Source of the DNA: Nemertoderma westbladi
Taxonomy: Eukaryota; Animalia; Xenacoelomorpha
Direction: 5' to 3'
Length of the DNA stretch: 52,017 nt
NCBI GenBank assembly: GCA_032718475.1
Contig: JAUCBJ010000952.1
Span: 1-52,017, forward strand
Below, piece by piece: positions 205-51,269 of this stretch (positions within the stretch are counted from its first letter, which is position 1; each line of letters starts with the position of its first letter). The notes below the pieces were generated by a model, which was not told where the DNA came from, did no database searches, and saw nothing but the letters and a program-made list of their open reading frames with translations. A program made the position numbers and the translations under genes.

Positions 205-208
205 TTAA

Positions 209-1815: not shown

Positions 1816-1819
1816 TTAA

Positions 1820-15356: not shown

Positions 15357-16237
15357 ACTTGAATAATCGTTGTACAAATAGCTATAGTGAATGCAAATGA
15401 AGACTTAATGTAATCTTTATAACAAGTTTATTCGAACAAATAAAATTTTGAAAATCCACAGCATTTATGAGAATATAATTATATACAGCTCCATGAAAAC
15501 AGGATATTATCGTGCTTAAAATATACGGTTTTCACCAATAACAAATCAAATTATGGAATACTTGGGACGTACTTACATATTTACAAATTAAATCTCAACA
15601 ATAATACCTTTACATAATAATTCGATACAAAATAATTACAAATTCAAACTTTACGTATTTAAGGCTTTATTAAGTAAGCACAATATAAATCTAAATTAAA
15701 TTCACCAATATAAATCTATTGCATCTCAATATTGCATAAATTCAAATAATTACCAATACAAATGAAGTTATTGCATCTCAAATATTGCATAGATACAAAA
15801 TTGTTACAAATACAAATACTTTCGTGCCTAAAGATATATTGCATAAGTTCGGAATTATTACAAATATGAGTCTCTCTAAGTACGAACTTTCTAAATACAA
15901 AACTTTCTAATTACAAAATATAACGATTTACAAATGAAGTCATAAGAAAGGCTCACGAGTCTTCCGTCTACTCTTGCCTTCTATTTACTGCGAATACAAA
16001 TACTGCTTCTTTATAAAATATAAATTGCATAATATTCGAAACAATAAATTGCGTAAGTTTGGAATGACTACAAATATAGCACTTTCTAAATATAAATCTT
16101 TCTAAATATAAAACTTTCTAAATTTCATAAAATTGGAACAATACAATACATAAATTTAGAACAATATAACGCTGTATAAGTTTAATCATAAGAAAGGCTC
16201 ACGAGTCTTCCATCCACCCTTGCCCTCCCTTCCCGCT

Positions 16238-19200
16238 TTATCGCTTAGCAGATCGAGCCCTGCCATGTCCTCGAAAACTGCGCACAGGTGACTTTGCTCG
16301 CGGTATGGGATTTGTGGGGCGAGTCACTAGTTTACCTTGGACGTTGGGAGATGGTGCGACCATTTCCTCACATATTCGTATATTAGGCTTCCCAAATCCT
16401 CGTCCGATTCCTTGTGACCGATCGGTTGTGTCTACCGCTGGTAGAACGTCTGGGAACGTGCGGGAAGCGTACGACGCAGACCCAAGAGGAACTTACGCCC
16501 ATTTTTGATCAGCTGGTACATGTCCCGATCCTCCTTGCGGTTCTCTGGGAAGTGACACCGTATCTCGAGTAACTCTAATAGTCGGTTCATTCCCTTTTCT
16601 TTCTTCAATATTTATAGCTTTCTTTAATTGTTGGCCCACTTTCTGAACCCTTAGTATCCTATGCTGTCCGTCCTCCCGAGGGTGACGTGCAGACGGCGCA
16701 ACCGGAGTAGCTGGTATGTTGGTCACCTCTAGGATCTCCTCTTCCTCGAATACGCTCGCTCGTATACGCCTATGATAGAACGCGGCTCGGTACGCCCATG
16801 CGACGGTTAACCAAGCTCCCTTGTTCCGCTTTTCCGTTCGAAAACGATCGAATTCACCATATGTGATACGATTGACTACTTTCTGGAAGTTCCATGTATT
16901 CTTATTGTCGGGGTGAATCTGTAACAAATATTCGCGCACAACTCGAAATCCACTATCGTGAGGCAAAATATCAACTACCTCGATAAGTTCATCATATTGG
17001 GGCATAGCGGAGATATATCCTTCTGACATCATAGTTTAGGATTTACCACCCAAAATCCAAGATGCGCTCTCATTGGGAACCGTCTTCTTTGCGCCGATAC
17101 ATGTTCGTCAGCTAAATCTTCCCATTTGTCGAATAGTTTTCTCACTAGTTTTACAGATTCGTGTTCGTAAGTTATGTCTCGTAATTGGCATTCAGATGCT
17201 CGATGTCCCTTTATATTGCAATATGTACATTGAGCCATAAATCTCCAGCAAGTATAAAATGTATGGGACCCTTGATCTCCACACCATCCACAGATTAGTT
17301 GAGTCGTAGTAATGTGCTTTCCACTGCACTTTGTCGAATGATGTCCAGCGACGCCACATTTACCACACATAGTGTTAGCAGGGTACCACACTCGCTCATA
17401 TATAAGGTCTCCAATTGGTCGAGCGCTTCCTCCCACACTATAGTCATAGTCGTCTGGATCTACAGGTTGGTATGCTTCAGAAGGTTGTATGCAAACTACA
17501 GCATCTGTTGCTTCAAGTTGTCGAATCTCCGTCTGAGATTTCTTCAGGAGGTTCCTTTCAATCTCAAGAAGTTCCTCTAGAGGATCATCAACGGTCGTCG
17601 TTACTTCGAAATCATCACCTAAGTGACCGATAGGCGCGCGCGTCTGCCGTGATTCGTCAGTAATCTCCACGATACGTTCTCCTTCATAGGGTAACAATGT
17701 AAACATAGATGGTCTTTCAATGAGAGATCCCGCACAGCGAAGATACACGTCTCAAAATATACTAAATCCTGCTCGAGTAAAGGCATTGCACTGAGCGTCG
17801 GAATTGTAGAAGGGTTCAAGAAATCGTCTAAACACATCGGTATGAATTCTCCCTTCCGCGTAGAACGTATGATCTTCTCCGAGACAAAGTGGATGTCTTT
17901 TAAGAGTCCGAGACACAATGTCGGCGACTAGGCAAACATTCACTGATGACTCTATCGCTAAATAATATTGTAGGACCACTCTTGGAGGTGACGTAATAGC
18001 CCAATACACGCATCCTCTCCATTTGAGCTGTGATTCAAACTCGTTTATATCCGGAGTATCACCTTCTCCATAAGTTTCGATATACTTGGTTCTCTTACTT
18101 TCCTTGTAATCCCAATTAAATATTAGGTAGGAGATATATCCAGTTCCGGTTTTCTGAGTATCATACTCACGGAAAAATCCTTGTTCTATAGACCACAAGA
18201 TAAGAGGTCGAGTGTCGACGTAAGGTGTCAGTAGTCGGTCGTCACGGTCCGTCATGCCGGCGAAGCCGCTAATTAAATCCTTTCTCACTCCTGATCCAAT
18301 CTTTACAACAGTTTTATATAAAATGATATTTCTTACCATCTTCGGTAACATCCTAGCATCGATCTTGCAAGCTTGGTCCATCTTCTTTACTATATTAGTG
18401 ATGAGATGGTGTCGCTTTGTATTCGCTGTAGGTATCGGCATTCGTTTGTCGCTCCTTTGTCTACTAAAAATGTGCAAAACTCCGTCTGCCGCTCTAATTT
18501 GTATAGTCTTGGAAGTCAGACATTGTTGATGGCTGCCGCCCTCGTTATCATAAAACATGTAGCCATTCTCTTGAAACGATCTAAACGTTCTGTTCCATTC
18601 GTCCAGTAATTCTTCCAAAGGTTGCCAAATCTTCTCTATGTCTTTCTCGTCCTCGAAACGAATGACTTTATCTTGCCAGTTCGTAGCTATGTCTGTATCC
18701 GACTCGAAGGTTCCTGTTCCAATCCATAAGCGAATTGTTCTGGTCAAATATCCTTTCAGGTTACTCGGAGCTATATCAGCGCCAGCTCTATCTAGTTCCC
18801 TAAAGTCTTGAATATGAGGCGGAACATTATGCACAACCTTTTGCGTAATATGTCTACGTAAATTATATATCTTAACCATATCGCTTGGAACAACTGCAGG
18901 AAGAAACTCCAAGTTTGAAATGATTTCCGAATGGTCCACGATAGGTATTTCGTACGTCGTATCCTATCGGACTGGAATACTAATAGGGTAATTGAGTGTC
19001 GTACTCAATGGTTTCACAGTCGAAGTACTATACGGTTGCATTTCTCTTGTCCTTTCCGGGGATGCAATCTGTAGTCTCTGAATAACGTTTTGGGCAAAGT
19101 TTATACTTTCGAAAACTTCTGGTGTCATTTCCTTAGCTGAAGTTTGATCGTGTGACGTCCAATGGTAAGAAGGCACGCGAGTCTTCCGCCCCATTCTTCC

Positions 19201-21079
19201 ATCTCACCTTTTTTGAAAGCCTTGTAGGCTCTGTATAGGCTAAGAGCTTCTTTCTTTTCGCGGGTTGACTGAGTCGCCTCGTCCAGCATAAGTTCAAATG
19301 CATCGGGTTCAACAACCTTGGGTGGGTAAACGACAATTTCTCCCACCTTTGGTCCAGTCATAGCAAATGAATGATATGGATTCGATAAAGGATACCCTCC
19401 TTCCTGGTAGCGTAGTTGTTGATGGTTCGAACACATCGCCAATATCGGTTCAGGATTTTCCTTATTCAAACGCATCGGAATCGCATTTCGTTGTTCGCGC
19501 ATACAAGCACCACATTTGTAATAAAGTTTATAAACTGAAAAGGCTTCCTTCGTTTCTCTATCGTCCCCTCGAGTTCGTCTGTAAAGATGCATTCCATCAA
19601 ATTCATCGCGTACCGCAGGCATAGGTTCATGCGCCTTCAGGTATTGCATGGTATGATACAAACGACTAATTTCAGTATCAGGGTCTTCGCTAATATCTCC
19701 CGTATCACACAAATCGTCGTACGGGTAAAGTTCGATGAAGGTTTCGCGTAAACTTTCGATTCTTTCATTTAACGCGTTTTGTCTTCTCTTTATTACGATT
19801 GGGTCATATTTCGCTTTCGTCCTTCTGGGCTCCTCTCGGAGGCGCACCCACGAGGCGGACTTGTTTCCACCACCCCTGGGGCCAGTCCGACTGATGTTAT
19901 TATCACACCGGGCCGGAGGGTGGCCCGATGCTTCCCGGGTTCTGTTTTCGGTCCCCCGATCACACTGGCACAGCTCGTCGAACGTGTAGCCAGATGGGCA
20001 GCTACTGTCAACTTACTGTGGCCTGACTGTACATTGAGCCAACTCAAAGAGTCAACCGGCAGGTGGACCAGTCGATAGCGATCGAGCACCAAAGTCGCCC
20101 TTGGGCCTAACCGACGGTCTTGTCCCAAGCGGGCTTGCGCTACCCAACATTGGAATTTTGACACGTTTTCACCTGCCTCGCCGGCAGTATTGAGGGGACA
20201 CCATTCCTCAACAATACTGACTAGCTCGAAAGCTAGGAACAAGTAACCACTTACCCGTCCTGTACACGTGTACTCAACAGATGTTCACGAAATCAAGTAC
20301 ACAACGGTAAGCACAAAATCGAACACATACCATGCACACACAGATGACTTAATCGGGTAAGACAAAATCGGGGTCAAAATCGGGAAAGACAAAATCGGAG
20401 ACATAATCGACCAACCAACAAGTCGAGAGTAAACAATTGCCAGTAAACAAGTCAACTGGCAAGGGTTCCCATATTTACTCGCAGTGGCCACACATACAAT
20501 CACGTGTACTCACGTACCCACAGCAACAGAAAGCTCAAAGACCCAGACGGTTTATCCCAATGCCACCAAAGACCAATCAGCTGAACATGGAGACAATAAC
20601 ATATAGTATCAAAAAAACGGAACAGCTGATGGCCAATGGAACCATCCAAGCCCCAAGCAAACTGCCACTGATCGCCCACATACAAAACATAGTTCACGCC
20701 ACATGAGCCACAAATCACGCCATGCCACCACCCCTACTGTGTACAGGACTGGCAGTACGGCAACAGGCCGACTAGACGGTATCACGGCACCATGGCAATT
20801 CATGGTTCATTAGATACAAGGGCCTTCAGTGACTCCCTAGCACTATACTCGCAATTTAACGTGCCCCTAGACCCTCACGAGTCCACCGCCGCCTGTTAAG
20901 ACCACCCCTATAGAGACCTCACCTCTTTAGGTAGTCTTTGCGAATTTTGCTGTACTTTCTGATAATTCCTTTATACCAAATATAGTGTAGTCTTTAGCTC
21001 CAAATCGTTCGAATGGCGCTGCTGCTTCCTTTTGGATATCATATCCCCATCTCGGCTCTCCGCGTATCCCCTTCTCCAT
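16238..21079 (-). pseudogene. Extra ORF (ORF3) of copy A: Cys/His motif, DEDDy 3'-5' exonuclease, three CCHC knuckles, basic tail; disrupted
   Basis: ATG at 21079; pieces 19125-19817, 18964-19170, 17752-18939, 17029-17748 and 16238-17032. Motifs FYDNEG, TIQIRAADGVLHIF, VVKIGSGVRKDL, YVDTRPL, YYLAIES; CGKCGVAGHHSTKC, CGWCGDQGSHTFYTC, CTYCNIKGHRASEC. Confidence 0.8.
19818..20935. other. About 1.1-kb GC-richer insertion of unknown origin interrupting ORF3 of copy A
   Basis: Absent from copy B at 42065-42075. Flanked by CTTT on both sides. No recognisable domain. Confidence 0.75.
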
Positions 21080-21742
21080 TATTGGAAGTAATGGTTACAT
21101 AATCATTGCTACTAGAGGGAATACAACAGAGTTTATAGTTAGTTGTGAGGAGACGTGAGGGTTTTCGTCTGCCCTTTGGGCTTCGACAATGCTCTAACCT
21201 CCTACCCATAGCCTAAGATCTAGGGTTTCTTTAATGACACACTGTTTCTTATCTAAATTTTTGCCGAAATAAAAACGATTTTGGGCTAAACTGGCTGTGA
21301 GTCTAAAATACTCACTTTTTGATCCCAAACTATTATCAGAAAATAAGCAATCAAGAATTAGTAATAAATATAGGGAAGTCTATTATTTGACGTAACTTAT
21401 TGAAACAAGACCGTGTAAAATTTAATTAAAATTTTAAGAAAGGCTCGCGAGTCTTCCATTTTCTTGTTTCTCTAATTTTAAGATCCACCCGACTGTACCC
21501 TGAAATCTATTCACTGGAGAAATTTTTAAAGTTTTTCAAATCCAAATGGATTGTCTAAAATTTTGAAAATGTCTCAATATTGTGAGTTCCAAGTAGAATT
21601 CCATTTCTTATACCTACAAATCCCGCTCCTATGTGACACATAAGGGTACTACCCTCAATGTTCACATATAAAGACAATGGAATTCTACCGCTGTCTTTAC
21701 TACAGTGTACAGGTACGTGGAAATCTATTTGTAAACTCCTTA

Positions 21743-23287
21743 TTATTTACTAACATTAGTTGGAGATTTGTAGTCTCCAGACTCGTTACGAGTCTCTTCA
21801 AGAAGTACGAGATGTTGAGTCGGTCTATCTACTGTACGACCGTCAATTGTCCGTACTGTCACAGTTCTTGTCACTCCATCCATAGATGGATGTGTGGCTA
21901 AAATTACACCTGTTATCCAGAAGCGTCTTTTTAGATTCACTTCTGCTAACAGCACATGATCTCCCGGCTTTAATGCACTGGTATTATTGTACCAAGTAGT
22001 TCTGGCAGAAATAGAGGGCAAATAATGGTTTTGCCATATTTCCCAGAATTTGTTAGCCAGTAGTTGCGTGATTTTCCACGCTTTTCTACCGTAGCTATCG
22101 CCTTCTATTGGAATAGAAATAGGCGTCAATGTTGTCGGTGCCTGCATTAGCAGGTGTGCCGGTGTTAAAGCAAATTGGGATTGTTTGTCATCGGGTACTA
22201 ATACTATTGGTGCGTGCTCATCGCGAATCTTATTATTGTAGCAATCTATCACCTTGTTTAATTCATCGTTGTAGTCGAATTGTCCGCCATGATTGATGAG
22301 ATGGCACAGGTTTACTTGGTTTCGCCAAGTCTCATTTTCGTTGAGGAGGTTGATTGTATTTTCCTCGTTGAATAATTGGTTAATATCGTCATTATCTGAG
22401 GAGTATGGTGTTCCCTCAGTTGTGGTTTCTCCCTCACTGATTTCTTCTTCCCATTCACTCACCTGATGTACCTTTTCTCGAGGGAGTCTTTCCATCAGTG
22501 TTCGACGGGAAGGTCCAGTGAAGTACCAACCTACTTTCGTTCTTCCCGCGTATGTTTGTAATGGTTGCGGTCGAGCAGGCCGTTTTTCTAATGTCTCTAG
22601 CGCCTCATGCGCATTTTGGCCAATCAATATCTGTACCCCTGGGTAGTCGGTGTTGAATCTAGGGATATCATGCTGCTGGGTAAAATGATCTTCATCCCAG
22701 TTATAAGGTTCCACTTGGCTGGTAGCAAAGTTCTTTATCGCCACCATTTTTACCGACCTTATGCTATGTTCTCCTAGTTCATCCTGGGGAGTGGACAATG
22801 CGCCTACATAGTAATCTGTAGCTACAGTGGATTTCCAAACCTGCATAATTCCTGAAATGTTCAACTTAGTTCGGAACTTGGGTTGTCCAGCAAAGATGTC
22901 TTTGGCTAGTTCTTTGTCGATGAATGTCCCTGTACTGCCGGAGTCAAGGAGGGCGTTTACTATAAAACTCTTACCTATCCCATGGAATCTCAGCTGCACC
23001 ACTGGGAATTCCGGGATTCCGACGTTGGAAGTTGGCGCTTTCCAAGATGGTGGTTGGTCTGGAATGGTTAGTTGCGTTTCGTTATTGGTTTCAGTCTCAT
23101 ACGTAAGCGCTCGATACACTGCGGTGTTTATCATATAACAGGATTCATTTTCGTCGGAGAAATCGTCCGTGTAAAATCCTTCCATCTCAGAGCTGTGGTC
23201 AGTGTCATTCACATCACTGAATTGGACATGTAGTTTGGGCTCACTTACCTGACTCGTGTGGGTTCCTTCAAATTCTGTGTGCAGCAA
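21743..23287 (-). pseudogene. Bel/Pao aspartic protease fused in frame to the integrase C-terminal tail (RT, RNase H and IN core deleted)
   Basis: LLDSGSTGTFI, ILIGQN and VGWYFTGP, then from 22211 PIVLVPDDKQSQFALTPAHLL...FWEIWQNHYL...DGVTRTVTVRT, almost identical to the end of copy B pol. Confidence 0.85.
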
Positions 23288-26773: not shown

Positions 26774-26906
26774 GTTTGATTTTTCAGTTGAATGCCTACT
26801 ACTATAACGACAGTTAAATAAGTCTAGTAATTCAGTATCCACTGTAAGCAAGTAATCAGTTACCGATACTGTCACTCAGTGTAACGTGATATATATAATA
26901 TATTAG

Positions 26907-27150: not shown

Positions 27151-27247
27151 GGTAATGTCAATTATTGATAATAACTGCATTTCTGAATTTTAGGGTTACT
27201 TTCCTTTACCTTTTACTGTTATTAAGCAGTAGTCCAACTGATATTAA

Positions 27248-31465: not shown

Positions 31466-31469
31466 TTAA

Positions 31470-37148: not shown

Positions 37149-37579
37149 TTCCCCCGATGTTCTCGTCTACCGCTGCGGTCCGCTCTCTAGCCAGCCATCT
37201 GTCCCTCAGTTGGGTTCACCGTAGTGAAGCATAGTAAAAAGGGCAGATATAACAAGTATTTCTTAACTTTATTACAAAATAACTAATATACAATAAATGT
37301 AACAAGAATATGCTAATCTAGAGTGTTGTGTAGTTAGATTGAGGTATCTAGTACTATAATTAATGAACGAAATCGCACCTTTTATAGCAAATTTGTGCTG
37401 CAAACAATCGAGAACATTCCATGAATTATATTGGATTTTAAAGATAACTATTGGTCCAGCAAACACATATCTTACACAACATTGGTTACTATCAAATAAC
37501 TGCAATTACATTGGTTAATCTACCTAAGTGCATGCAATTAAACTGTAGCGGTCAATTTAAATTAGTTGAAATTCAGCAC

Positions 37580-37663
37580 AAAAAACAATTTGCACCTGCT
37601 AGGATTTGAACTCTATACCTACTAGACAAATTTCCAGCGCATAAACGACTGAGCTACTGAACC
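37580..37663 (-). ncRNA. tRNA-like Pol III cassette in copy B
   Basis: Minus strand GGTTCAGTAGCTCAGTCG...CTGGA-AATTTG-TCTAG stem...GAGTTCAAATCC...TTTTTT; orthologous to 15273-15356. Confidence 0.55.
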
Positions 37664-38578
37664 ACTTGAATAACATTGTACAAATAGACATGGTAAATAC
37701 AAATGAGAACTTAATGTAATTCTTTTAACAAGTTTATTCCAACAAAATAAAATTTTCGAAAATCCACGGCTTTGTGAGGATATAATTCTATACCGCTCCA
37801 TGAAAACAGGATATTATCGTACATAAAATATACGGTTTTCACCAATAATCAATCAAATTATAGAATACTTAGGGCGTACCTACATATTTACAAATTAAAT
37901 TTCAAACAATACTTCCTTTCTATGTAATAATTCGATACAAAATAATTACAAATTCAAACTTTACATATTTAAGGCTTTACTAAGTAGGTACAATATAAAT
38001 CTAAATTAAATTCACCAATATAAATCTATTGCATCTCGATATTGCATAAATTCAAATAATTACAAATACAAATAAATGAAAATCATAAGAAAGGCTCGCG
38101 AGTCTTCCATCTACTATTGCATCTCAAATATTGCATAAATTCAAATAATTACAAATACTTTCGTGCCTAAATATAGATTGCATAAGTTCGGAATAATTAC
38201 AAATATGAGTCTTTCTAAGTACAAAACTTTCTAACTATAAAACTTTCTAAATACAAAATATAACGCTTTACAAATGAAACTATAAGAAAGGCCCACGAGT
38301 CTTCCGTCTACTCTTACTTTCTATTTCACTGTAAATACAATACTGCTCATAAGATATAAATTGCATAATATTCGGAACAATATAAATTGCATAAGTTCGG
38401 AATAATCACAAATATAAAATATAAATCTTGCAAAATATAACTTCCTTCTAAATATAAATCTTACTAAATATAAATTTTACTAAATATAAATCTTACAAAA
38501 TATAAAACATATAATTCAAATAAATCACAAATTCACAAGAAAGGCTCACGAGTCTTCCGTCCACTCTTGCCCTCCCTT

Positions 38579-41500: not shown

Positions 41501-42210
41501 TCTTTCTTTTCGCGGGTTGACTGATTCGCCTCGTCCAGCGTAAGTTCAAATGCATCGGGTTCAACAACCTTAGGTGGGTAAACGACAATTTCTCCCGCCT
41601 TTGGTCCAGTCATAGCAAACGAATGATATGGATTTGATAAAGGATACCCTCCTTCCTGGTAGCGTAGTTGTTGGTGGTTCGAACACCTCGCCAATATCGG
41701 TTCGGGATTTTCCTTATTCAAACGCATCGGAATCGCATTTCGTTGTTCGCGCATACAAGCACCACATTGATAATAAAGTTTATAAACTGAAAATGCTTCC
41801 TTTGTTTCTCTATCGTCCCCTCGTGTTCGTCTGTAAAGATGCATTCCATCAAACTCATTGCGTACCGCAGGCATAGGTTCATGCGCCTTCAGGTATTGCA
41901 TGGTATGATACAAACGACTAATTTCAGTATCAGGGTCTTCGCTAATGTCTCCCGTGTCACATAACGCGTCGTACGGGTAAAGTTCATTGAAGGTTTTGCG
42001 CAAACTTTCGATTCTTTCATTTAACGCATTTTGCCTCCTCTTTAATACATTCGAGTCATATTTCGTTCTCGCAAGTTTTGCCGTACTTTCTGATAATTCT
42101 TTTATACCAAATATAGTATAGTCTTTAGCTCCAAATCTTTCGAATGGTGCTGCTGCTTCCTCTTGGATATCGTATCCCTATCTCGGCTCTCCATGTATCT
42201 CTTTCGCCAT
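38579..42210 (-). pseudogene. Extra ORF (ORF3) of copy B: Cys/His motif, DEDDy exonuclease, three CCHC knuckles, RG-rich tail; disrupted
   Basis: ATG at 42210 is in frame with 40486-42003 and 40003-40449 across single stops (42178-42180, 40486-40488). Knuckle region 39066-39920 and tail 38579-38980 (RGIGRG, RGRGRAR). Colinear with copy A. Confidence 0.82.
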
Positions 42211-42874
42211 AATTAGAGGTGTAGTTACATAATTATTACTACTAGAGGGAATACAACAGAGTTTATAGTTAGTTGTGAGGAGACGTGAGAGTTTTTGTCT
42301 GCCCTTTTGGCTCGACAACGCTCTAACCTCCTACCCATAGCCTAAGATCTAGGGTTTCTTTAATGACACGCTGTTTTCTTATCTAAAATTTTGTGCCGAA
42401 ATAAAAACGATTTTGGGATAAACTGGCTGTGAGTCTAAAATACTCACTTTTTGATCCCAAACTATTATCAGAAAATAAGCAATCAAGAATTAGTAATAAA
42501 TATAGGGGAGTCTATTTTGTTTGACGTAACTTATTGAAACAAGACCGTGTAAAATTTAATTAAAATTTAAGAAAGGCTCGCAAGTCTTCCCTTCTTGTTT
42601 CTCTAATTTTAAGTTCCACCCGACTGTACCCTGAAATCTATTCACTGGAGAATATTTTAAAAATTTTTCAAATCCAAATGGATTGTCTAAAATTTCGAAA
42701 ATGTCTCAATATTGTGAGTTCCAAGTAGAATTCCATTTCTTATACCTACAAATCCCGCTCCTATGTGACACATAAGGGTACTACCCTCAATGTTCACATA
42801 TAAATACAATGGAATTCTACCACTGTCTTTACTACAGTGTACAGGTACGTGGAAATCTATTTGTAAACTCCTAA

Positions 42875-45800
42875 TTATTTACTAATATTAGGTGGAGATT
42901 TGTAGTCTCCAGACTCGTTACGAGTCTCTTCAAGAAGTACGAGACGTTGAGTCGGTCTGTCTACTGTACGACCGTCAATTTTCCGTACCGTCACAGTTCT
43001 TGTCACTCCATCCATAGATGGATGTGTGGCTAAAATTACACCTGTTATCCAGAAGTGTCTTTTTAGATTCACTTCTGCCAACAGCACGTGATCTCCCGGC
43101 TTTAAAGCGCGAGTATTGTTGTACCAATTTGTTCTGGCAGAAATAGAGGGCAAATAATGGTTTTGCCATATTTCCCAGAATTTGTTAGCTAGTAGTTGCG
43201 TGATTTTCCACGCTTTTCTACCGTAGATATCGCCTTCTATTGGAATAGAAATAGGCGTCAAAGTAGTCGGTGCCTGCATTAGCAGGTGTGCCGGTGTTAA
43301 AGCAAATTGGGATTGTTTGTCATCGGGTACTAATACTATTGGTCTAGTATTTAGTATTGCCTCGATTTCAACAAACAATGTGGTCAGTTGGTCGTCTGTC
43401 AATATGTGGTTTACTGGAATGACCTTTGCCATTGCCGTTTTGATAGATCTAATCAATCTCTCCCAGACTCCGCCTCTCCATGGACTATCTGGAGGATTAA
43501 ACTTCCAAACAATCTTGTAAGGACGTAGTTCATTTGAGATTTGATCGTGATCTAATTTCTTAAAGGCTCTAGCAATTTCATTTCGAGCACCAACAAAGTT
43601 TGTACCTTGGTCTGAGTACAAGCATTTTACTAGTCCGCGTCTAGCGATAAATCGCCGCAATGCTAGTATAAACGCGTTGGTGGAAAGATCCATCACACGT
43701 TCAATATGAACTGCCCTACTGGACATACATGTGAAAATCAGTCCCCAGCGTTTTACTAGTATACGACCATGTTTCGTATGTATGGGACCAAAGCAGTCAA
43801 TTCCAGTCTCTGTAAAAGGTGGTCTGAATGCTTGAAGTCGTGCTTGTGGAAGTTCACTCATTTCTTGGGTACCTATTCTAGAGTGTACCTTTTTACAAAT
43901 AATACACGTACGCGTCACTGAACTTAACGCTTTACTGGGTCTAATTAATACAAATCTTGTACGTAAATAAGAAAGACAGTGGTGTCTTCCAGCGTGTTTC
44001 AGATGTAAATGTGCGTCCAGTATCATTGCACGTTGTAATTCGTGATGCTGCGGTATTATTATTGGGTACCTAAAGTTAGTGTTAAAGTCAATGTTTTGAA
44101 GCCGAGATTTATGACAAATTAAGCCATTATAAATTATCGGACTCCAACTCAATATTGGTGACGACTTAATTGGTTGACCTTGACTTATAGATGTGAATTC
44201 GCGTGCGAAATATCGCAATTGGTAATGGCGAATTAATTTAATTTCACATCTGTCTATCTCAGTCAATGTAAGTCGACGTGTAAAGTCGCGTTTGCCTTTA
44301 ACGTATTGTACAAAACGTACAATCCACGCTAATTTTCGGCAAGCGTTTGTCCAAGAATCTGTTAGGTTTACAATGCGGTCGACGTAAGTATTTGTGACGT
44401 CATCAGGTAAGTCAATGGAGAATTTGGAAGGTTTTGATTTACTAGAAGGGCCCACGGGTCCGCCGGTAAGTATTCCCTTGTTGACTGTTGATCCGTCCGG
44501 GTCTACAAGTAATTTGTCCTTCTTTGTCTTCTTACCTTGATTGTCGGTACTTTGTAAGTCGATCCCTAATGGTGGTTTTAACTCTACGGGATCACTGGGT
44601 TTTGGTAAACTTATTTTTCTGCCGATATTAATCCCAGGTCTCACTGTAGGTTGCAAGTTTGGTATGTCTCTTGAGCGTAAAGTAACACCTGTATTTACAT
44701 TTGCGTAGGTACTACCCACATCTGTAATACATGAGGTTTCACTGTACTTATGGTTACTCAAGGGTGTCAAGTTTGGTAGTTTGTCAATACAAGGCCGCTC
44801 CAATAGGGAAACTGCGGCTTTACTGTTTGTCAATATGTTACTAGTGTCTTGTTGATCATTTTGTGATATGTCTGGCAAAATGTTTCGCGGAACATCCGGC
44901 GAAACGTCTAGTGACATGGATGGCAAAACGTCTGGTTGACTGTCTAGTAACACGTCTGGTTGACCATCTGGTAACGCGTCTGGTTGACCGTCTGGCGATA
45001 TGTCTTGTTTTGAAAGGCTCGCAAGTCTTCCCTTCTTGACCTTTGAAGTTATATCTTTCCATTTCGCCTTCGGTTTTTTCTTAAGTTTAGCCGCCGTCCT
45101 TTTCTTTGCTTTCCCTTTCTTTGGTTTTTTAATTTCCGCATCTTTAGGGATAGTGTTAGACTTGTTGTCGTATAGTGGCGGCCAATGTAGTGTTGATCTT
45201 TGCAAGAATTGTGGTCTGTGTTGCCAAAATTCTTTGTTTTCCAGTTTACAGAATTCCTCAGGCATCATTCCTCGTGACGCAATATCAGCTGGATTTTGTG
45301 ATCCGGGACAATGTCGCCAATCTTCCTTTATTGAACGGTCCAAGATTTCCGCACGACGGTTAGCTACGAATGTCTTGAATTCAAGTGTGTCGTTGTTTAT
45401 ATAGAATAAAACTAACGTCGCGTCAGTCCAATAAAATATCTGTAAACTTGACTGTAGTTCAGTCTGTATGAGGTTTACAATGGTAGTTGACAGAGTTGCT
45501 GCTTGTAGTTCAGCGCGTGGTGTCGTCATATACTTAGTAGGCATGGTCTTAGCCTTAGAAGTAATGAGCGAAACATCAAACTCGTCTGAACCTACTTGTC
45601 TGCACAAATACACTGTCACTCCAAAGCCGTTGTCACTGGCGTCGGAAAAACAATGTAATTCTAAGTTGTCAGGAAATGTCATCTGTAATGGAAAATATAC
45701 CCGGGGTATGGAATAGTCTTCTAATGAAGACAATTGCGCCTCCCAAGTTATCCATAAGTCTACTTGTTCTGATGAGATCGGTTTGTCCCATGTGAGTCCA

Positions 45801-46720
45801 TCCTTCCAAATACTGCGCATGAATATTCTCGCTTGCAGTATTATTGGGCTGATGAAACCCAATGGATCGAACAATCGACTCAATTTTGACAAGCAGGACC
45901 TCTTTGTCAGAGTGTTTCCTTGAGTGTCCAGTCTCACCTTCACTCGAAAGTTGTCCGTGTTTGGGTCCCAAAAGAACCTCAACACCTTTGTCGTCGGTAG
46001 TGGTTCGAACTCCAGGTCAATGTCACCACCTCCACGCTCAGTCATTCCGAATGAATCTACTAATTCGGCACTGTTTGAGGCAAACTTGGTGAGGTTAAAA
46101 CCTCCGCCCGCTAAGCAGTCCCGTAATTGATGTGCTACTGTGATAGCACGTTCTACTGTGTCACAACTTTGTAACCCATCGTCTACGTAAAAGTCTTGTT
46201 CTACGATCCGAACTTCCTCTGGGTCATATATATGTTTCTGATCCCTAGCGGTTTGCTTTAGGGCATACATAGTACAATTTGGGCTGTCTCTGGCACCGAA
46301 AACGCGAACTTGCATTTGGTAAGTCGCCAGTGGTAGACTTAAGTCTCCTTCCGGGTACCAGAGGAACCTCAAACTGTCTCTGTCTCGCTCTAACGCTCGC
46401 ACTTGGTGAAACATAGCTTCGACGTCACAAGTAAAGGCTACTTGACGCTGACGGAAGCGCATAATCACCCCCATGAGATAATTATTCATGTTTGGTCCGT
46501 CCATCAACTCACTATTGAGGGACATTCCCTCAAACAGAGCCGCGCAGTCATTTACTATGCGTACTTTGTCTGGTTTATCGGGGTGTCTCACGTAGTGATG
46601 TGGCAAATAGTATGTCTGGTCTGTCACAATCTCTGGGTTAGTCATTCTGATAGCGTATCCCTTCGTTAAATACGTCTCCATCTGGGTATTATACTGCAGA
46701 TGGGCTTTCTCGTCCTTCAA
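42875..46720 (-). CDS. pol: Bel/Pao pol: reverse transcriptase, RNase H and integrase (open for 1281 codons)
   Basis: YLPHH, KVRIVND, DVEAMFHQV, FGARDSP, FYVDDG; HCFSDAS, PRAELQAA, WTDA, NPADIASRG; H-x4-H...CxxC, GIDCFGP, YSDQGTNF, GGVWERLIRS. Confidence 0.95.
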   Translation of the reverse strand: MKDEKAHLQYNTQMETYLTKGYAIRMTNPEIVTDQTYYLPHHYVRHPDKPDKVRIVNDCAALFEGMSLNSELMDGPNMNNYLMGVIMRFRQRQVAFTCDVEAMFHQVRALERDRDSLRFLWYPEGDLSLPLATYQMQVRVFGARDSPNCTMYALKQTARDQKHIYDPEEVRIVEQDFYVDDGLQSCDTVERAITVAHQLRDCLAGGGFNLTKFASNSAELVDSFGMTERGGGDIDLEFEPLPTTKVLRFFWDPNTDNFRVKVRLDTQGNTLTKRSCLSKLSRLFDPLGFISPIILQARIFMRSIWKDGLTWDKPISSEQVDLWITWEAQLSSLEDYSIPRVYFPLQMTFPDNLELHCFSDASDNGFGVTVYLCRQVGSDEFDVSLITSKAKTMPTKYMTTPRAELQAATLSTTIVNLIQTELQSSLQIFYWTDATLVLFYINNDTLEFKTFVANRRAEILDRSIKEDWRHCPGSQNPADIASRGMMPEEFCKLENKEFWQHRPQFLQRSTLHWPPLYDNKSNTIPKDAEIKKPKKGKAKKRTAAKLKKKPKAKWKDITSKVKKGRLASLSKQDISPDGQPDALPDGQPDVLLDSQPDVLPSMSLDVSPDVPRNILPDISQNDQQDTSNILTNSKAAVSLLERPCIDKLPNLTPLSNHKYSETSCITDVGSTYANVNTGVTLRSRDIPNLQPTVRPGINIGRKISLPKPSDPVELKPPLGIDLQSTDNQGKKTKKDKLLVDPDGSTVNKGILTGGPVGPSSKSKPSKFSIDLPDDVTNTYVDRIVNLTDSWTNACRKLAWIVRFVQYVKGKRDFTRRLTLTEIDRCEIKLIRHYQLRYFAREFTSISQGQPIKSSPILSWSPIIYNGLICHKSRLQNIDFNTNFRYPIIIPQHHELQRAMILDAHLHLKHAGRHHCLSYLRTRFVLIRPSKALSSVTRTCIICKKVHSRIGTQEMSELPQARLQAFRPPFTETGIDCFGPIHTKHGRILVKRWGLIFTCMSSRAVHIERVMDLSTNAFILALRRFIARRGLVKCLYSDQGTNFVGARNEIARAFKKLDHDQISNELRPYKIVWKFNPPDSPWRGGVWERLIRSIKTAMAKVIPVNHILTDDQLTTLFVEIEAILNTRPIVLVPDDKQSQFALTPAHLLMQAPTTLTPISIPIEGDIYGRKAWKITQLLANKFWEIWQNHYLPSISARTNWYNNTRALKPGDHVLLAEVNLKRHFWITGVILATHPSMDGVTRTVTVRKIDGRTVDRPTQRLVLLEETRNESGDYKSPPNISK

Positions 46721-46755
46721 TAAACGTTGTCGTATTGAGTTTAGACGTCTTAAAG

Positions 46756-49700
46756 CTAGCGGATAATTGTTTGTCTGATAGTTTCTGTTAATCTGATAGT
46801 TTTCTCCGTTAATTCTTTGTCTAGTGCAGCTTGTTCCACCTGACAGTGTCTTAAGGTTTCGTCTTCTACGGGCGTTGTTGAGGTCATTGGTTGAGGTAGA
46901 CTCTCAAGCCTTCCGGCGTCATCATCTATCGTTGATGGAACCTCTGTCTGACTCCGCTCCTTCTCAAGTTCTACGCTCCGCTGGTGGATTTGCTGCTCCT
47001 TGTGACTTATCATACTCACTACACATGTCGTACTTGTGTCCTTGTTGTGTTTTGTCACTTGTGTAGTATGGTCTTTGTCATGTGAAAAGGAATGAATTGA
47101 AGTTGTAGTTAATAAACTACATGTACTTTGTACATCATCCTCTTCGTCACTTATATCTAGTGTGCGCACAGGCGCTCGAGTAAACCAACCTATCGGCATT
47201 CTTCAGGCGTATGCATTTCCTGCTACGACTACCGATGGTCTGGTTTCCCACACTTGATGTAAATTGAATTGATCTGTCCCGATCAGCATTGCTACCGATC
47301 TATAATTGACAGGACATTCAGGTACACCAAGGTGTCTGAAATACTTACGATCCTCTAAGGATTGTTCCGGCACTGGACCCAGTAGGTTACTAAAGTCCTT
47401 GGTGGCCGCAAAAGTCAAATCCTTAAAGGGTAACAAAGACCTCTCCTTTTCGCTGTGTTGCGATTTCGGAAGAAGAGTGTCTAAGTTTAACTTAACTCGT
47501 GTCACTGGTATTGCACGTTGTCCATGCATACTACTTATGGTGTAACTGACGTTCTTACCTTGTCGGAGATCCGTCACGACATCAGCTACCTTCTCATCCA
47601 CATAGCTGTGAGATGAGGCTGAATCCAGGATAGCGTAGATCCTTTTGCTCCCTTTGGTGCCAGTAATCTTAATAGGAATTACGCTGAAACCTTTTAGTTG
47701 ATCAGTCGTCAGAAGCGCGATCGATGGTTGTTCGTCTCCGACTGAGTATGCGTCGTCGTCCTCGGTTTCTTCGTCAGAAGACCCGGACTGCTCCGGAAAA
47801 CAATCCCGAATATGCGTCACAAAAGTTGGAGTCATTCTCGATTCACGATTCTTGTAGGCTGTATTACATTTCGCTGCTGCTTCCGGGTGTTCCCTAGTGA
47901 AGCGTTTGGTCGGCGTATGGCTGTCTGTATGGAGTAAGCCGTCGTGGTTGCGTCCACAGGAAGGACATGTGTCGGTATTTGGGCAGTCCTTACGGACGTG
48001 TCCGTGTTGCGTACACCGCCAACAAGAGTCCAATGGCCGTATCTGCAGCCATCGTTCTTCCGAGTTTAACTCGCGAAATAACCGACAACCTCTTAACTTA
48101 TGAGTGGTGTGCCGCTTGCCTAGCTGCTCGCAGTATTGGCAACCGCTAAAGACTGTGCTCAGTTGCTGTCTGGTCTGTTTTATCCCAATAGGTGCGGATA
48201 CTCTATTACCGTCCGAAAATTGTCGAGTTTCCGTCGGTGTAGCGTAAGTGGTGGATGTTGTCTGGGGTTTCTGTTGGTTCGAGGATGGTAAGGTTATTCC
48301 CTCCGCTACGATATGTTGGTCAGTATAGTTGGATCGCGTCTCTACCACCGCTTCCTTGGATATTAAAAGGTATATATCTTCCAGTTTTAAGAATCCACCC
48401 CTTTCTTCGTGCTGGAATTCGATCTTCCTCCATTCCCGACGAAGTCGATGGTGGAGTCTCCCTATGATCTTTAATAGGACTGTAGGAGTGTTCGCGTAGT
48501 CAAGTTGTCCAATTGAGCGTAGTGTAGTAATGGCGTTCTTAATCTCGTCAGCTAATTTCAGTAAGTCAACGGGTTTTGTAATAGCCCCCCCCCCCCCCCC
48601 CCCTTACAGAGTTCTTCTATCACTGACTTGGCCATACTGACTGTACCTCCGTGAATCGAAGTTAAGCGATCGTACGCTAGTTCGAAGGCGTCTGGTATTC
48701 ACACAGCGATCTGGGATTCAATGTAGTCCACGAACGTGTGCCAATGTTTGGAGCTACCGGAAAACTTAGGTGGTTGTTGCACCGGTAGTCCTTGTCTAGC
48801 TGCGAATTTCGCTATTTCCTCGGCAACATTCAAAGTTTCGCGTCCTTGTTGGGCAATCGAGTTGATGTTTTCTCTTCTTGGCGCTCTTCTTTGTTACAAG
48901 GTGTTTCCTGAGGGTTGCTTTCTTTGCTGCTTCGGGTGTCTAGAGTGTTCAAATTCGATGTTTCGCGAACTATCAGTTTGAGTTTCTTCTAAACGTTCCT
49001 CTATCTGGGCCAACTTGTCTACAACTGGTCGCATTAGATCGGCGAATTGTTGCGTGCTAATCGCGTCCGTTGGTTGTGATGCTTTCTGTGTTGGTGTATT
49101 TTGTGGAGGATTGTCGATAAAGGAATTATCTGAACGCTCACGTTTACATTCGTCAGCCCCTCCTGTTCTAAATACCTCGCGTTCCGGGTAATCCGATTCA
49201 CTCGAAGTACTACTATCACCTGGATACGGTGGCTGACGTGTTCGTGTCCATTGCGTCGTTCGAATTCTAACATTCCATTTCGGAACATCGTTCGCTGGTC
49301 TCCGTTGTTCGGTAGGCTCACGAGTCTTCCTCGAAGTCGTAGATTGCGATGTAAACTGGTTAAACGGTCGCGTTTCCACTGGTCTCTGTTGTTCGGTAGG
49401 CTCACAAGTCTTCCTCGAAGTCGTAGATTGCGATGTAAACTGAAACGGTGGTCGAGTGACAGCATTTGAATCAACTGGCCGTGTAGGTTTAAACGTCCTT
49501 GGGTACGTGTAGTGCGTAACGGGTTTCGGTGTCGAAGGTGGACTCACCTGTTTAGTTGTCAGTAGTGCAGGTCCAGTCAATAAACTACTACGATCGGTAA
49601 ACGGTGGGTTACTTACCTTGACTTTCAGAATAGGCGATGACGTTGCTCTTGGCGGTATGAACTTGTCCGGAATAACAAACCTGTGTTCCGTCGCACCATA

Positions 49701-51189
49701 TAATATATTACTACTACCCGCAATCGAAACAGGTTCCTTAGTCGTAATTGGTGCAAACATAGGAGTTACTTGTGGGAATCTTTGACATAAGTCTTTAACT
49801 AATTGTCGTTCTCGCCCAGGTGCTCCTACACTTCCTTCCTTCATTCGTTCCTGAATTTGGCGGTGCCTTACCTCTATCTGGTCCAAATCGTGTCCGTCTC
49901 GAGATCTCATCGATCGATCGCGGGCTTTAAGATCCAGATCTTCCTTGGCATTTGCTAATTCTCTCGCCTTCCTTTCAAGTTCGAAATGAAGTTTAGCTTC
50001 CTTTTCTCGTTGTTCCGTCTGTTGTTGTTGTGCCTCGAACTTCGCTTGTCGTATAGCTGACTGAGCCTTTATCTGTTGTTTCCTCAACTCGGCTCGAGCT
50101 TCCGAAACTCGCTTTTGTTCTTCCAACAGATAATTCTTCCAACTCAGCTGTTGCTGCTCGTTGCGCTAACTCAGCTGCCGCTGTTCGCTGTGCTATTTCT
50201 AGCTCTAACCTTTCCATCTCAGCTGCTTCTAGTTCTGCTGCTTCTTGCAGATGAGAGATTCTCGCAACATTTGCGACGCGTAGTTTCTCTTCCTCTACAG
50301 CTGCTTGTACCGTCAGTAGTTGAGTTTGTTCCTCAATTTCAAGCTGTCTGTAGAACTGTTGCTGTTGTTGAGAAATTTCTGACGTGACAATACTCACCTC
50401 GCCAATTTCGCTGCAAATACTCACCAGTGATTGATCTAGTATTCCCGGTGCCAGTTCGATTTGTGCGAGTGAAGTTTCCCTCGTAGCCTCCGGCACGGTT
50501 TCCCAATCTCCGACGTCTTCGCCGCACATACGTAAGTGATCCGTCAGATGTTTCAATTGTCCATCCAGCCTATACATTTCCTGTTCTTCCTCGGGTTGCA
50601 ATAATTCGTCCGAAACTGACTCACCTAACAACTGGTCCACTTGTTCCTGTTGTATGTGTCTAATGGTCGACTTAAACTGAATCAGTTTCTCCCTGGCGAT
50701 CATTAATTTCTCGAGGATTCGAAATTGCGTGTCCGCATCCTGTCTTTGTCTAGCTAAATCTTGTAGACTGATTAGGTTATCTACGGACTTATGTACTCTA
50801 CTTTGTACTCTCACCTGTAGAGTGTAGAACTCGAATCGGGACATCGGAGCGGTCAACTCGTCTAATATGCGTTGGCCTTCTCCAATACTCCTGGTAATGT
50901 GCGCCATGTATCCACCGACGCTTCTAACAACGCTTTCCTGGCTTCCTACTGAACTTACCATGTCCGTTTCCCTGTATCTAGGTTGCGGAACAGTTAGAAA
51001 GTCCTCGGTCCTGCCGTCGCCTCGTACTACGGCATCCGGTACTCCCGTTGGATGTACTGGTGACGCACACGGCGTAGGTTCGGTAGGCTCACGAGTCTTC
51101 CCCTGTGGTTCTTCCGCTGCTGACCTATCCGCGTCACATGAGTCATAGTCGGTAGGTGTATTCTTCGTATAGTCTTGTTTGTCACTCAT
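46756..51189 (-). pseudogene. gag: Bel/Pao gag-protease of copy B (frameshifts and stops)
   Basis: ATG at 51189; coiled coil; knuckles CWRCTQHGHVRKDC and CPSCGRNHDGLLH; protease ILDSASSHSYV, MLIGTD. Lesions near 50126, 48350-48900 (including a poly-C run), 47203 and 46770. Confidence 0.85.
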
Positions 51190-51269
51190 TTCGGTAGTTG
51201 TAAGTCAAGTGAGTGTCAAAGTATCGAATTTACCGTATTTATATCAAAAACGGTACTAATTACAGTCAT

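Follow-up and report, generated by a model that had tools for sequence, protein, structure and literature searches.

A 17-nucleotide motif dispersed through a BEL/Pao retrotransposon of Nemertoderma westbladi as a putative multivalent RNA contact site

Introduction

Short self-complementary sequences acting at the nucleotide level are known from the RNAs of several LTR retroelements, among them PAL1/PAL2 and CYC5/CYC3 of Ty1 and the dimer initiation sites of retroviruses. Both Ty1 RNA dimerisation and Ty1 mobility require the self-complementary PAL1 and PAL2, which we count as a precedent for the reading proposed below, and some self-complementary sequences of Ty1 lie inside coding sequence, such as PAL3 in GAG (PMC6844567). 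As far as the source's account of them extends, the Ty1 and retroviral sites are 6-7 nt long, occur one to three times per element and cluster at the 5' end. The repeat described here resembles them in being a short self-complementary sequence of an LTR retroelement, with a predicted action at the nucleotide level, but differs in its length (17-20 nt), in its dispersal over 13 kb at nine or ten sites and in a constant A x C mismatch.

Other systems share one or another of these features. Central polypurine tracts, which prime plus-strand DNA in lentiviruses, foamy viruses and Ty1 (PPT2), are exact copies of a 3' cis signal inside pol. They too are frame-independent nucleotide copies in pol, and at several of our sites a purine run meets the motif; however, theirs number one to four with the tract itself conserved, whereas here there are nine, the conserved part lies mostly downstream and the gag copies have no purine tract. 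The dispersed packaging signals of MS2-type ssRNA viruses, which bind the capsid protein multivalently, have the form of degenerate stem-loops with a short motif in the loop; many copies of one element across coding and non-coding RNA are common to both systems, but our copies have an exact sequence, and folding in context mostly fails to predict their weak local stem-loop. The gypsy Su(Hw) array comprises about a dozen same-orientation sites within a few hundred bp of leader that act as dsDNA. It is likewise one short motif present in many same-orientation copies in an LTR retroelement, whereas the sites described here are dispersed through ORFs and not clustered in the leader. The CGCG element, or BANP motif (TCTCGCGAGA), is described from the promoter CpG islands of vertebrate housekeeping genes (PMC2920758, PMC6192621). 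Compared with the motif in the form those sources present, it has the palindromic 8-nt core CTCGCGAG in common, but here the copies are intragenic in a transposon, CGCG is kept in 4/13 and the flanks are unlike.

Results

The window analysed is a 52,017-nt stretch of N. westbladi contig JAUCBJ010000952.1 (assembly GCA_032718475.1), and the motif is carried in it by two copies, both on the minus strand, of an element of ~16 kb with a long, A-rich sense strand. Copy B (35942..52017) was delimited by Pfam domains and identical 26-nt LTR ends: its 3' LTR end (...TCTTCCA) is at 35942, and its opposite limit is the final 26 nt of the 5' LTR (52017-51992), which are identical to the 3' LTR end and are all that the window holds of the 5' LTR, the remainder lying beyond it. 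Its pol matches Peptidase_A17 (6e-42), DUF5641 (4e-20) and Integrase_H2C2 (1e-4), and 239 pol homologues at E <= 1e-20 have the same domain set, the best at ~40% identity. On this domain content, with the Peptidase_A17 region, the integrase zinc-binding domain and the DUF5641 tail all present, the carrier is assigned to BEL/Pao (Belpaoviridae-type), and its family is young and very abundant. Copy A (13619..22211) is partial, consisting of the integrase end, ORF3 and the 3' region; it is homologous to copy B 35959-43343, with 84-95% identity over four blocks in a self-BLAST, and its upstream part (22211-26875) is a separate, motif-free lineage. The gag/protease-region ORF (47203..48603, minus strand) has one CX2CX4HX4C zinc knuckle (zf-CCHC E = 0.0074, short of Pfam's cut-off). 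The ORF3 region (38579..42208, minus strand) encodes an orphan protein, for which homologue searches found none, with CX2CX4HX4C knuckles (zf-CCHC E = 0.011, again short of the cut-off); in copy B it is broken by in-frame stops and two frame changes.

Allowing at most one mismatch, AGGCTCRCRAGTCTTCC has exactly 13 matches in the window, 11 of them exact and two (19171 and 38289) with one mismatch each, and none of 100 dinucleotide shuffles contained a match, so that the chance expectation is 0. Because all 13 sites read AGGCTC... on the plus strand, the sense motif GGAAGACTYGYGAGCCT lies on the minus strand. When a weight matrix derived from the nine sites of copy B was used for scoring, the distribution was sharply bimodal: the 13 sites reached 27-32 bits, the next best were 17632, present in copy A only, with 18.6 bits and 46898 with 15.6 bits, and all lower scores were noise or the motif's own reverse-strand echoes. 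Neither the parts of the window beyond both element copies nor copy A's divergent 5' half (22211-26875) gave a motif score above noise in the same scan. Save for one AT-rich 3' repeat, the motif is the sole dispersed 12-mer repeat of copy B. The 17-mer is a genuine nucleotide repeat, specific to the retrotransposon and present in a single orientation, and the original prediction of 13 copies, all in one orientation, with at most one mismatch and absent from the foreign gag of copy A and from DNA beyond the elements, was correct at every position.

All sites lie on the minus strand. The most 5' site of copy B (51085..51101, CGTG form) is read as KTREP 88 nt past the gag-region ATG (51189) and has the 3' flank ACCGAAC, and two further gag-region sites, 49398..49414 (TGTG form, KTCEP) and 49314..49330 (CGTG form, KTREP), lie within an 84-nt tandem duplication. 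The diverged motif GGAAGGCTTGAGAGTCT at 46898..46914 is read as GRLESL at the start of the RT-bearing frame (PR|RT junction). In pol, 45015..45031 (TGCG form) is read as GRLASL at aa 625, directly 3' of a Lys-coding purine-rich tract; it opens a ~225-aa family-specific insert separating RNase H from integrase, and the blocks flanking this insert adjoin each other in 8/8 homologues compared. The site at 42574..42590 (TGCG form), with a 12-nt purine run before it, lies in the pol-ORF3 spacer within the ORF3 mRNA intron, and the one at 41423..41439 (CGCG form) is read as GRLASL in ORF3. Three ~200-250-nt repeats then carry 38542..38558 (CGTG form), which starts 21 nt past the ORF3 stop and shortly 3' of the purine run AAAAGGGAGGG (38580-38570), 38289..38305 (CGTG form, one mismatch) and 38092..38108 (CGCG form). 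We considered and rejected a purine run of ~10 nt or more as a property of every copy: a 12-nt run leads into the motif at 2/9 copy-B sites, the gag sites have none, and the 11-nt run near 38542 is located 11 nt 5' of that site. Copy A has orthologues of 42574 (21441..21457, CGCG form), 41423 (19171..19187, one mismatch), 38542 (16195..16211) and 38289 (15949..15965); it is without the 36 nt carrying site 38092. The degenerate motif-like GGCAGACGCGCGCGCCT (17632..17648) lies in an ORF3 segment of copy A in place of which copy B has other sequence.

Since the motif is read in two frames and also occurs in non-coding DNA, the repeat is a nucleotide-level one. The frames that the original prediction named (KTREP/KTCEP in the gag-region ORFs, GRLASL in pol at 45015 and in ORF3 at 41423) were recovered, as were its non-coding sites, namely 42574 in the spacer and 38542, 38289 and 38092 past the ORF3 stop. 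Each of the four sites in copy A has its orthologue in copy B, which leaves nine distinct positions, and these fall into at least four flank classes. Shared flanks suggest ~4-5 independent placements (the 3' repeats; spacer and pol linker; ORF3; the gag group); they extend to 27 nt between 42574 and 45015, the identity originally noted, 24 nt in the gag group and 23 nt between the 3' repeats and the spacer. Copies A and B differ at 3/68 motif positions and 47/460 positions of the 60-nt flanks (Fisher p = 0.18). Family-wide, only 4 places with variants at >= 2% occur in a 107-nt stretch around 42574, so the flanks vary no more than the motif does. The youth of the family precludes a constraint test, and excess conservation over the flanks is not supported; a search for relatives in other species, for comparison of positional conservation, found none. 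The claim of conservation at the nucleic-acid level therefore holds as nucleotide-level identity, in two frames and non-coding DNA, in one orientation and restricted to the element, but not as excess conservation.

The motif is the core of an imperfect 20-26-nt palindrome centred on CTCGCGAG, the half-sites GGAAGACTCG|CGAGCCTTTC matching at 8/10 positions, and it aligns with its own reverse strand when shifted by 3. The 10-bp CGCG element/BANP consensus TCTCGCGAGA was tried as an identity for this palindrome and rejected, its core being intact in 4/13 copies and its outer bases, as given in the sources, being different. Recurrent variation is confined to the two central CpGs, where the sense strand has C or T (first Y: C 10, T 3; second Y: C 6, T 7; 13 sites), and both central G are unchanged in 13/13 sites. 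Because substitutions across the family are strand-symmetric (C>T 216 vs G>A 214 in X1), plain CpG decay would be expected to give CA forms too. In a motif-motif duplex each C or U faces a G, so that the variants found remain paired (C-G or U.G) while G-to-A changes would not. The C/T-only pattern amounts to ~4-5 independent changes, with p ~0.03-0.06 under symmetric CpG decay, and the A x C mismatch is present in all 13 canonical copies.

Across all 45 pairings (45/45) of the nine copy-B 24-mers, the predicted duplex energy averaged -21.3 kcal/mol (-26.3 to -11.0), compared with a mean of -6.4 and a first percentile of -15.4 kcal/mol for random 24-mer pairs from the same RNA. According to this model, the copies are self-complementary to a degree that would allow intermolecular pairing. 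The diverged site 46898 carries exactly the two changes that fill both A x C mismatches, and nothing else in the whole RNA is predicted to pair better with the canonical copies (-28.1 and -32.6 kcal/mol). The element contains ten further non-overlapping 24-mers whose self-complementarity is as great or greater, so it is the copy number that is special and not palindromy alone. A local hairpin with a YGYG loop is predicted to be weak (-2.0 to -5.2 kcal/mol) and forms at 10/14 sites; in a +/-40-nt context it persists at 1/14, with a pair probability of at most 0.18 at 13/14, and a stem-loop packaging signal therefore seems unsupported.

The original prediction had also proposed a template-switch signal producing subgenomic RNAs. 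The leader has a 5' splice site at 51571..51577 (minus strand; exon end 51577, intron beginning GTGAGT), the ORF3 mRNA has a 3' splice site at 42241..42243 (minus strand; ..ccctctAG|T), and the first ATG of the ORF3 frame is at 42208. A DNA contig joint, 42241->51577, has GT..AG ends on the sense strand, and on these sequence features the ORF3 mRNA would arise by ordinary GT-AG splicing and not at the motif, the nearest copies of which are 330-490 nt from the 51577|42241 junction. Joints were examined for motif ends and ORF3-type junctions among the 15 listed of 90; none of these 15 has an end at a motif, and the only ORF3-type joint among them is this splice; the template-switch proposal is not supported. 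A nidovirus-like transcription-regulating sequence was rejected as well, there being no copy 5' of the gag ATG and the ORF3-type joint using GT..AG. As the ORF3 mRNA intron contains 6/10 copy-B sites (46898 included), the unspliced genome is richer in copies than the spliced RNA.

Discussion

We suggest, with a probability of roughly 0.3, that the motif is a putative multivalent, self-complementary RNA contact or packaging site. It would act in the genomic RNA as a many-copy contact site whose copies may pair together, inside one RNA or across two, and/or serve as binding sites for the zinc-knuckle proteins of the element (Gag, ORF3), with the possible outcome that the unspliced genome is dimerised, condensed or selected for packaging. 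A packaging or knuckle-protein site was among the candidates of the original prediction and forms part of this reading. We count in favour of such a contact site the nine same-orientation positions in two frames and non-coding DNA where 0 are expected by chance, and the predicted pairing between copies, the C/T-only variation and the imperfect palindrome. Counted against it are the lack of excess conservation over the flanks and of relatives found in other species, the constant A x C mismatch, which is unexpected if selection were for pairing alone, the weak local hairpin, the ten equally self-complementary 24-mers and the few independent C/T changes. To our knowledge, the dimerisation sites known so far are single, leader-located and not dispersed, which also counts against it; a classical dimerisation site (single, in the 5' leader, loop-exposed) was rejected, as the sites span gag to the 3' region and none is in the leader.

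The motif might instead be a functionless by-product, a 20-27-nt patch that template switching of the reverse transcriptase or short-tract conversion would have spread within a master element, perhaps with help from the palindrome; we regard this as rather improbable. Such copying yields one orientation, and it fits the flanks of 27, 24 and 23 nt that hitch-hike with subsets of copies, the indels between copies in motif-bearing segments and the position of the pol site in a family-specific insert; the half-site asymmetry, being the same in all copies, points to common descent and not convergence, and the apparent 'conservation' of the motif would reflect no more than the youth of the family (4 places variable at >= 2% in 107 nt; motif vs flank p = 0.18). 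However, at least 4-5 separate insertions of one core into the master lineage would be required, no other sequence behaves likewise, the sharply bimodal scores leave almost no decayed copies, and the C/T-only variation is left unexplained. It is less probable still that the sites are internal copies of the polypurine tract and U3 terminus, with a purine run ending GGAAGA that survives RNase H and primes the plus strand at several places, from which a 16-kb genome would benefit. The 24 nt 5' of the motif are purine-rich at 4/10 sites (>= 96th percentile) and reach the 84-91st percentile at 2 more, and unbroken purine runs of 12 nt lead into the motif at 42574 and at 45015, the latter at the RNase H|integrase border. 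Site 38542 follows AAAAGGGAGGG after the ORF3 stop, a possible location of the 3' polypurine tract and of the LTR start (TGGAC + motif), and the LTR end ...TCTTCCA is the inverse of the motif's GGAAGA. Yet the conserved part is 3' of the purine runs and outside them, no purine tract precedes the three gag sites or 38092 (8th-73rd percentile), copy A is without 38092, and most of the element's 21 purine runs of >= 10 nt are motif-free; the LTR start was not located within the window, the runs at 36945 and 36449 being equally good candidates besides 38580, and neither the palindrome nor the C/T-only variation is explained.

The DNA-binding-protein and small-RNA sites that the original prediction also listed are weaker rivals. 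A dsDNA site for a dimeric protein of the host or the element, for example of the CGCG type like TCTCGCGAGA/BANP, serving as an intragenic enhancer, insulator or silencing target, is about as improbable as the polypurine-tract copies. It would account for the 20-bp imperfect palindrome with its CTCGCGAG core, an 8-nt core identical to that of the CGCG element in its published form (PMC2920758, PMC6192621, PMC10206803), but CGCG is intact in only 4/13 copies (2/9 in copy B), the variation is one-sided (sense C/T), whereas decay in both halves would be expected of a symmetric dimer site, and a homodimer does not require a consistent orientation of unequal halves. Moreover, the core is flanked by A and C where the 10-mer as published has T and A, the copies are spread across coding DNA and not in a promoter, and the cited descriptions present the CGCG element as vertebrate-conserved. 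It is very unlikely that the copies serve as targets or decoys of a single small RNA, whether piRNA, siRNA or miRNA, that is complementary to the 23-nt block GGAAGACTYGYGAGCCTTTCTTA. Although a block of 17-23 nt has the size of a small-RNA footprint, occurs in one orientation and has a complement beginning with T(U), and G.U tolerance would account for the C/T-only variation, the stretch expected to face the seed (TTTCTTA) is conserved least, with 41423 and the gag group lacking it and 45015 keeping it in truncated form, and an element is expected to shed silencing targets, not to multiply them. We give least credence to pseudo 5' splice sites (GYGAG) that recruit U1 snRNP against premature polyadenylation, or to nidovirus-like junction signals. 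The centre G-T/C-G-A-G offers GT and GC, the two usable donor dinucleotides, in a long, A-rich sense strand, but exon -1 and -2 and intron +6 misfit a donor, GC forms make up 6/13, and the outer 10 conserved bases are unaccounted for; the true leader donor (51577) and ORF3 acceptor (42241) lie elsewhere and are used by the only ORF3-type joint listed, and no joint among the 15 of 90 listed touches a motif.

Three further observations are counted in favour of an RNA contact site. Site 46898 is a candidate hub, the position of the intron biases the copies toward unspliced RNA, and Gag and ORF3, both with CX2CX4HX4C knuckles, are candidate binding proteins.

A dispersed motif confined to a BEL/Pao family

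With one mismatch allowed, a search for AGGCTCRCRAGTCTTCC gave exactly 13 matches in the window, in one orientation throughout, reproducing every coordinate of the original prediction as well as its single orientation, and none of 100 dinucleotide-preserving shuffles of the window gave any match. Allowing three mismatches adds just two diverged copies, at 17632 and 46898, plus reverse-strand echoes at a 3-nt offset. The window was also scanned with a weight matrix built from the nine canonical sites of copy B (35942–52017), and the scores were sharply bimodal: the 13 sites fell at 27–32 bits, followed by scores of 18.6 and 15.6 bits and then by noise. The sites are carried by copy B and the partial copy A (13619–22211), two minus-strand copies of a BEL/Pao LTR retrotransposon, and in copy B the motif is the sole dispersed 12-mer repeat besides one AT-rich repeat in the 3′ region. 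The motif is real and specific to this BEL/Pao family.

The four copy-A sites (15949, 16195, 19171 and 21441) are orthologous to four of those in copy B, leaving nine distinct positions, while the diverged copy at 17632 is confined to copy A. The sites 49314 and 49398 form a tandem duplicate pair, and the three 3′ sites sit within repeats of ~200–250 nt. The number of independent placements, judged by shared flanks, is about four or five. The reading frames were as originally described, with the motif read as KTREP/KTCEP in the gag region and as GRLASL in pol and in ORF3, the ORF downstream of pol; so too were its presence in the pol–ORF3 spacer and 3′ region and the 27 nt common to 42574 and 45015. 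The upstream half of copy A, which comes from a different lineage, lacks the motif.

On the sense strand the motif reads GGAAGACTYGYGAGCCT, usually continued 3′ by TTC(TTA) at the non-coding and pol sites and by ACC in the ORF3 and gag group. The motif makes up the central part of an imperfect palindrome, GGAAGACTCG/CGAGCCTTTC, centred on CTCGCGAG. Its half-sites match at 8 of 10 positions, and at the spacer site 42574 the symmetry reaches ~26 nt. Nearly all variation among the 13 sites falls on two central pyrimidines, with C/T counts of 10/3 at the first and 6/7 at the second. The two central G never vary, the sole remaining changes, one each at 38289 and 19171, affect the same A, and every site retains the A × C mismatch between the half-sites. 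Purine content in the upstream 24 nt is at or above the 96th percentile at 4 of 10 sites and at the 84–91st percentile at two more; the gag sites show no such enrichment.

Structure of the carrier element

The pol ORF of copy B comprises 1342 codons and carries Peptidase_A17, Integrase_H2C2 and DUF5641 domains. It has 239 homologues at E ≤ 1e-20, the best just ~40% identical, and those named include echinoderms, cnidarians, molluscs, a barnacle and fishes. Pol is preceded by a long gag region and by an ORF that contains a single CX2CX4HX4C knuckle together with a protease-like DSA motif. What the window contains of the 5′ LTR, its final 26 nt (52017–51992), is identical to the 3′ end of the element (35967–35942, ...TCTTCCA), from which it follows that the window spans the element from 5′ LTR end to 3′ LTR end, ~16 kb. 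The LTR start was sought by a terminal-inverted-repeat search, in which the inverse of the LTR end had no convincing match in the 3′ region, and from contig depth, where the bins were too noisy to place it. Three repeats of ~200–250 nt follow the ORF3 stop (37950–38580), each containing one motif and short repeats resembling TTATGCAAT; there is a TATAAAAGG box near 37385, and AATAAA occurs near 37272. The layout resembles a U3-type enhancer/promoter, and the LTR may therefore be up to 2.6 kb long. No TGG-type primer-binding site lies directly after the 5′ LTR end (51960–51985, minus strand), where a perfect 8-bp hairpin, TACTGAAC..GTTCAGTA, is found. A stretch at ~37590–37665 (minus strand; GGTTCAGTAGCTCAGT...GTTCAAATCC...) appears tRNA-like by eye; ARAGORN and Rfam made no call there, and the searches for known RNA families and tRNAs found none. 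The DNA just beyond the 3′ end of copy B (35900–35938) is a very abundant repeat, and 93 contigs of the public sequencing run X1 diverge after 35938, indicating that copy B was inserted into another repeat.

Over the stretch that starts at the end of integrase and extends to the 3′ end, copy A is 84–95% identical to copy B. It has a 1.1-kb segment at the start of ORF3 (19813–20945) that is missing in copy B, and upstream of 22211 (22211–26875) it belongs to a different BEL/Pao lineage, a switch that marks it as a recombinant element.

ORF3 (38579–42208, minus strand) has two or three CCHC knuckles, with weak zf-CCHC matches, and in copy B is broken by in-frame stops and frame changes. It is an orphan: its N-terminal 563 aa, the length that could be searched, had no homologue among 5.8 billion proteins, and none was found in the ESM Atlas. 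One DNA contig of a second run, X4, joins 42241 to 51577 (minus strand), skipping 9.3 kb that start with GT and end with AG on the sense strand; the donor, GGAGTGG/GTGAGT, sits in the leader and the acceptor, ..CCCTCTAG/T, 33 nt upstream of the earliest ATG in the ORF3 frame. This joint has the appearance of a spliced ORF3 mRNA copied back into DNA, and ORF3 thus appears to be expressed by ordinary splicing, a third ORF produced much as retroviruses produce env. The motif had also been proposed as a template-switch signal for subgenomic RNAs. This reading was rejected: the joint, the only one of the ORF3 type seen, uses a GT..AG splice 330–490 nt from the nearest motif copies.

Positions of the copies

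In copy B, all on the minus strand, the site at 51085 lies 88 nt past the gag-region ATG, and the diverged copy at 46898–46914 lies at the protease/RT junction, the RT-bearing frame opening just past a TGA inside the motif; the 150-nt frame overlap beside it contains no −1 slippery heptamer. The site at 45015 falls at pol aa 625, where a ~225-aa insert begins that separates RNase H from integrase and is missing from all eight homologues compared. This insert (44350–45070, pol aa ~612–840) is of low complexity, Lys-rich and then composed of PDGQPD-type repeats; the loose-end letters beside 45012 gave no informative match. The site at 42574 occupies the pol–ORF3 spacer, and that at 38542, closely preceded by an 11-nt purine run, starts 21 nt past the ORF3 stop. 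The 36 nt containing 38092 are absent from copy A, and the motif-like 17632 falls in a segment that differs between the two copies. From their positions, the coding copies lie in linkers or low-complexity stretches, which would tolerate foreign nucleotides.

Predicted pairing

A local hairpin, its 5+2-bp stem carrying the A × C mismatch and its loop reading YGYG, is predicted at 10 of 14 sites at −2.0 to −5.2 kcal/mol and survives ±40 nt of context at one of the 14. Weak and mostly lost in context, it was set aside as the functional unit. For any two copy-B motifs the predicted duplex is ~20 bp long, with a mean of −21.3 kcal/mol over 45 pairs, compared with −6.4 kcal/mol for random 24-mer pairs from the same RNA (first percentile, −15.4). 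In this duplex the variable pyrimidines face G, so that all observed variants remain paired; G-to-A forms would not pair and are absent among the 13 sites. Across the family, C>T and G>A changes are equal in X1 (216 vs 214), and plain CpG decay should therefore have yielded G-to-A forms, an argument that draws on just four or five independent changes. Of all positions in the RNA, 46898 is predicted to pair best with the canonical motif (−28.1 and −32.6 kcal/mol); its two extra changes fill both A × C mismatches. The element contains ten further non-overlapping 24-mers whose self-complementarity equals or exceeds that of the motif; the exceptional feature of the motif is its copy number, not its palindromy.

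Conservation and occurrence elsewhere

Contigs of public runs (four DNA-type and one guessed to be RNA) were aligned to the element. The family is extremely abundant, with 18,443 X1 contigs over its 16 kb. Within 107 nt around 42574, covered by 141, 14, 1 and 0 contigs in X1, X3, X4 and X5, four places vary at ≥2%, one being the first central pyrimidine of the motif and two lying just outside it. Between copies A and B, 3 of 68 motif positions differ, against 47 of 460 in 60-nt flanks (p = 0.18). The same 17-mer recurs in two frames and in non-coding sequence, which supports identity at the nucleic-acid level. As to the proposed conservation, no excess over the flanks was found, and the family is too uniform across these contigs for a constraint test to have power either way.

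In other collections the 17-mer has one match at each of 2 viral and at least 117 metagenome loci. None of these 119 loci has more than one copy and none is element-like by BLASTN or TBLASTN, which identifies them as chance matches. Longer motif forms and the LTR–leader junction had no match in viral and prokaryote-genome contigs. The encoded peptides are not kept among 120 listed pol homologues (GRL[AVE]SL once, KT[RC]EP once and EDSRA twice, all at unrelated positions). Literature searches brought up no account of such a motif in BEL/Pao elements, though this falls short of proof that none has been published.

Interpretation of the motif

We tentatively suggest, at a probability of roughly 0.3, that the motif is an RNA-level, multivalent site, its copies along the genomic RNA acting as self-complementary contact points or packaging sites. 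Such a role would account for the palindrome, the single orientation, the C/U-only variation and the length, since 17–20 nt matches the footprint of pairing and not that of a knuckle. It would also account for the location of 6 of 10 copies in the ORF3 intron, which makes the unspliced RNA richer in the motif. It leaves the constant A × C mismatch and the purine-rich upstream tracts unexplained. The Ty1 PAL sequences (PMC6844567) offer a precedent for a self-complementary RNA contact site. A more specific form, in which distributed identical "sticky" sites and the compensating 46898 hub would condense or dimerize the 16-kb RNA, or would instead be read by the ORF3 protein made from spliced mRNA, we regard as doubtful.

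An RNA contact has to be weighed against several other explanations. The motif may be a functionless by-product of copy-and-paste within a young family, which we consider unlikely; in that case it would still be evidence of an unusual kind of mutation in a family that is highly successful. The purine-rich upstream tracts recall a polypurine-tract/U3-end module, and runs at 38580, 36945 and 36449 are candidate 3′ polypurine tracts. That internal copies of this module serve plus-strand priming is quite unlikely, in a judgement that depends on where the LTR begins. Recognition as double-stranded DNA by a dimeric protein, for instance as a CGCG-type element, would suit a palindrome and is quite unlikely; CGCG is intact in just 4 of the 13 copies. 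A small-RNA target is very unlikely, and pseudo-splice or junction signals extremely so, the pseudo-splice-site reading having been rejected. Likewise rejected was a resemblance to a primer-binding site (tRNA 3′ end), which requires a T ahead of GG that just 3 of 13 sites have.

To our knowledge, nearly all cis signals described for LTR retroelements come from yeast Ty elements and retroviruses, where they are single and near the ends, whereas this motif is dispersed in nine or ten copies. If the more specific form with its 46898 hub is true, it would represent a multivalent packaging or organization system undescribed for LTR retroelements. A dispersed palindromic signal would suggest that very long retroelements organize their genomes differently, perhaps with many RNA–RNA or RNA–protein contacts or many plus-strand primers, and it offers a testable handle in one oligonucleotide and two zinc-knuckle proteins.

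Other features of the window

A 46-nt satellite array of several kb occupies 1–7000, and tandem repeats of 68 nt and 163 nt occur at 10450–10800 and 31990–32710. On the plus strand lie an endonuclease/reverse-transcriptase (LINE-like) fragment at 11697–13688 and a Mutator-like transposase ORF at 29079–30377 (Pfam E = 3e-33).
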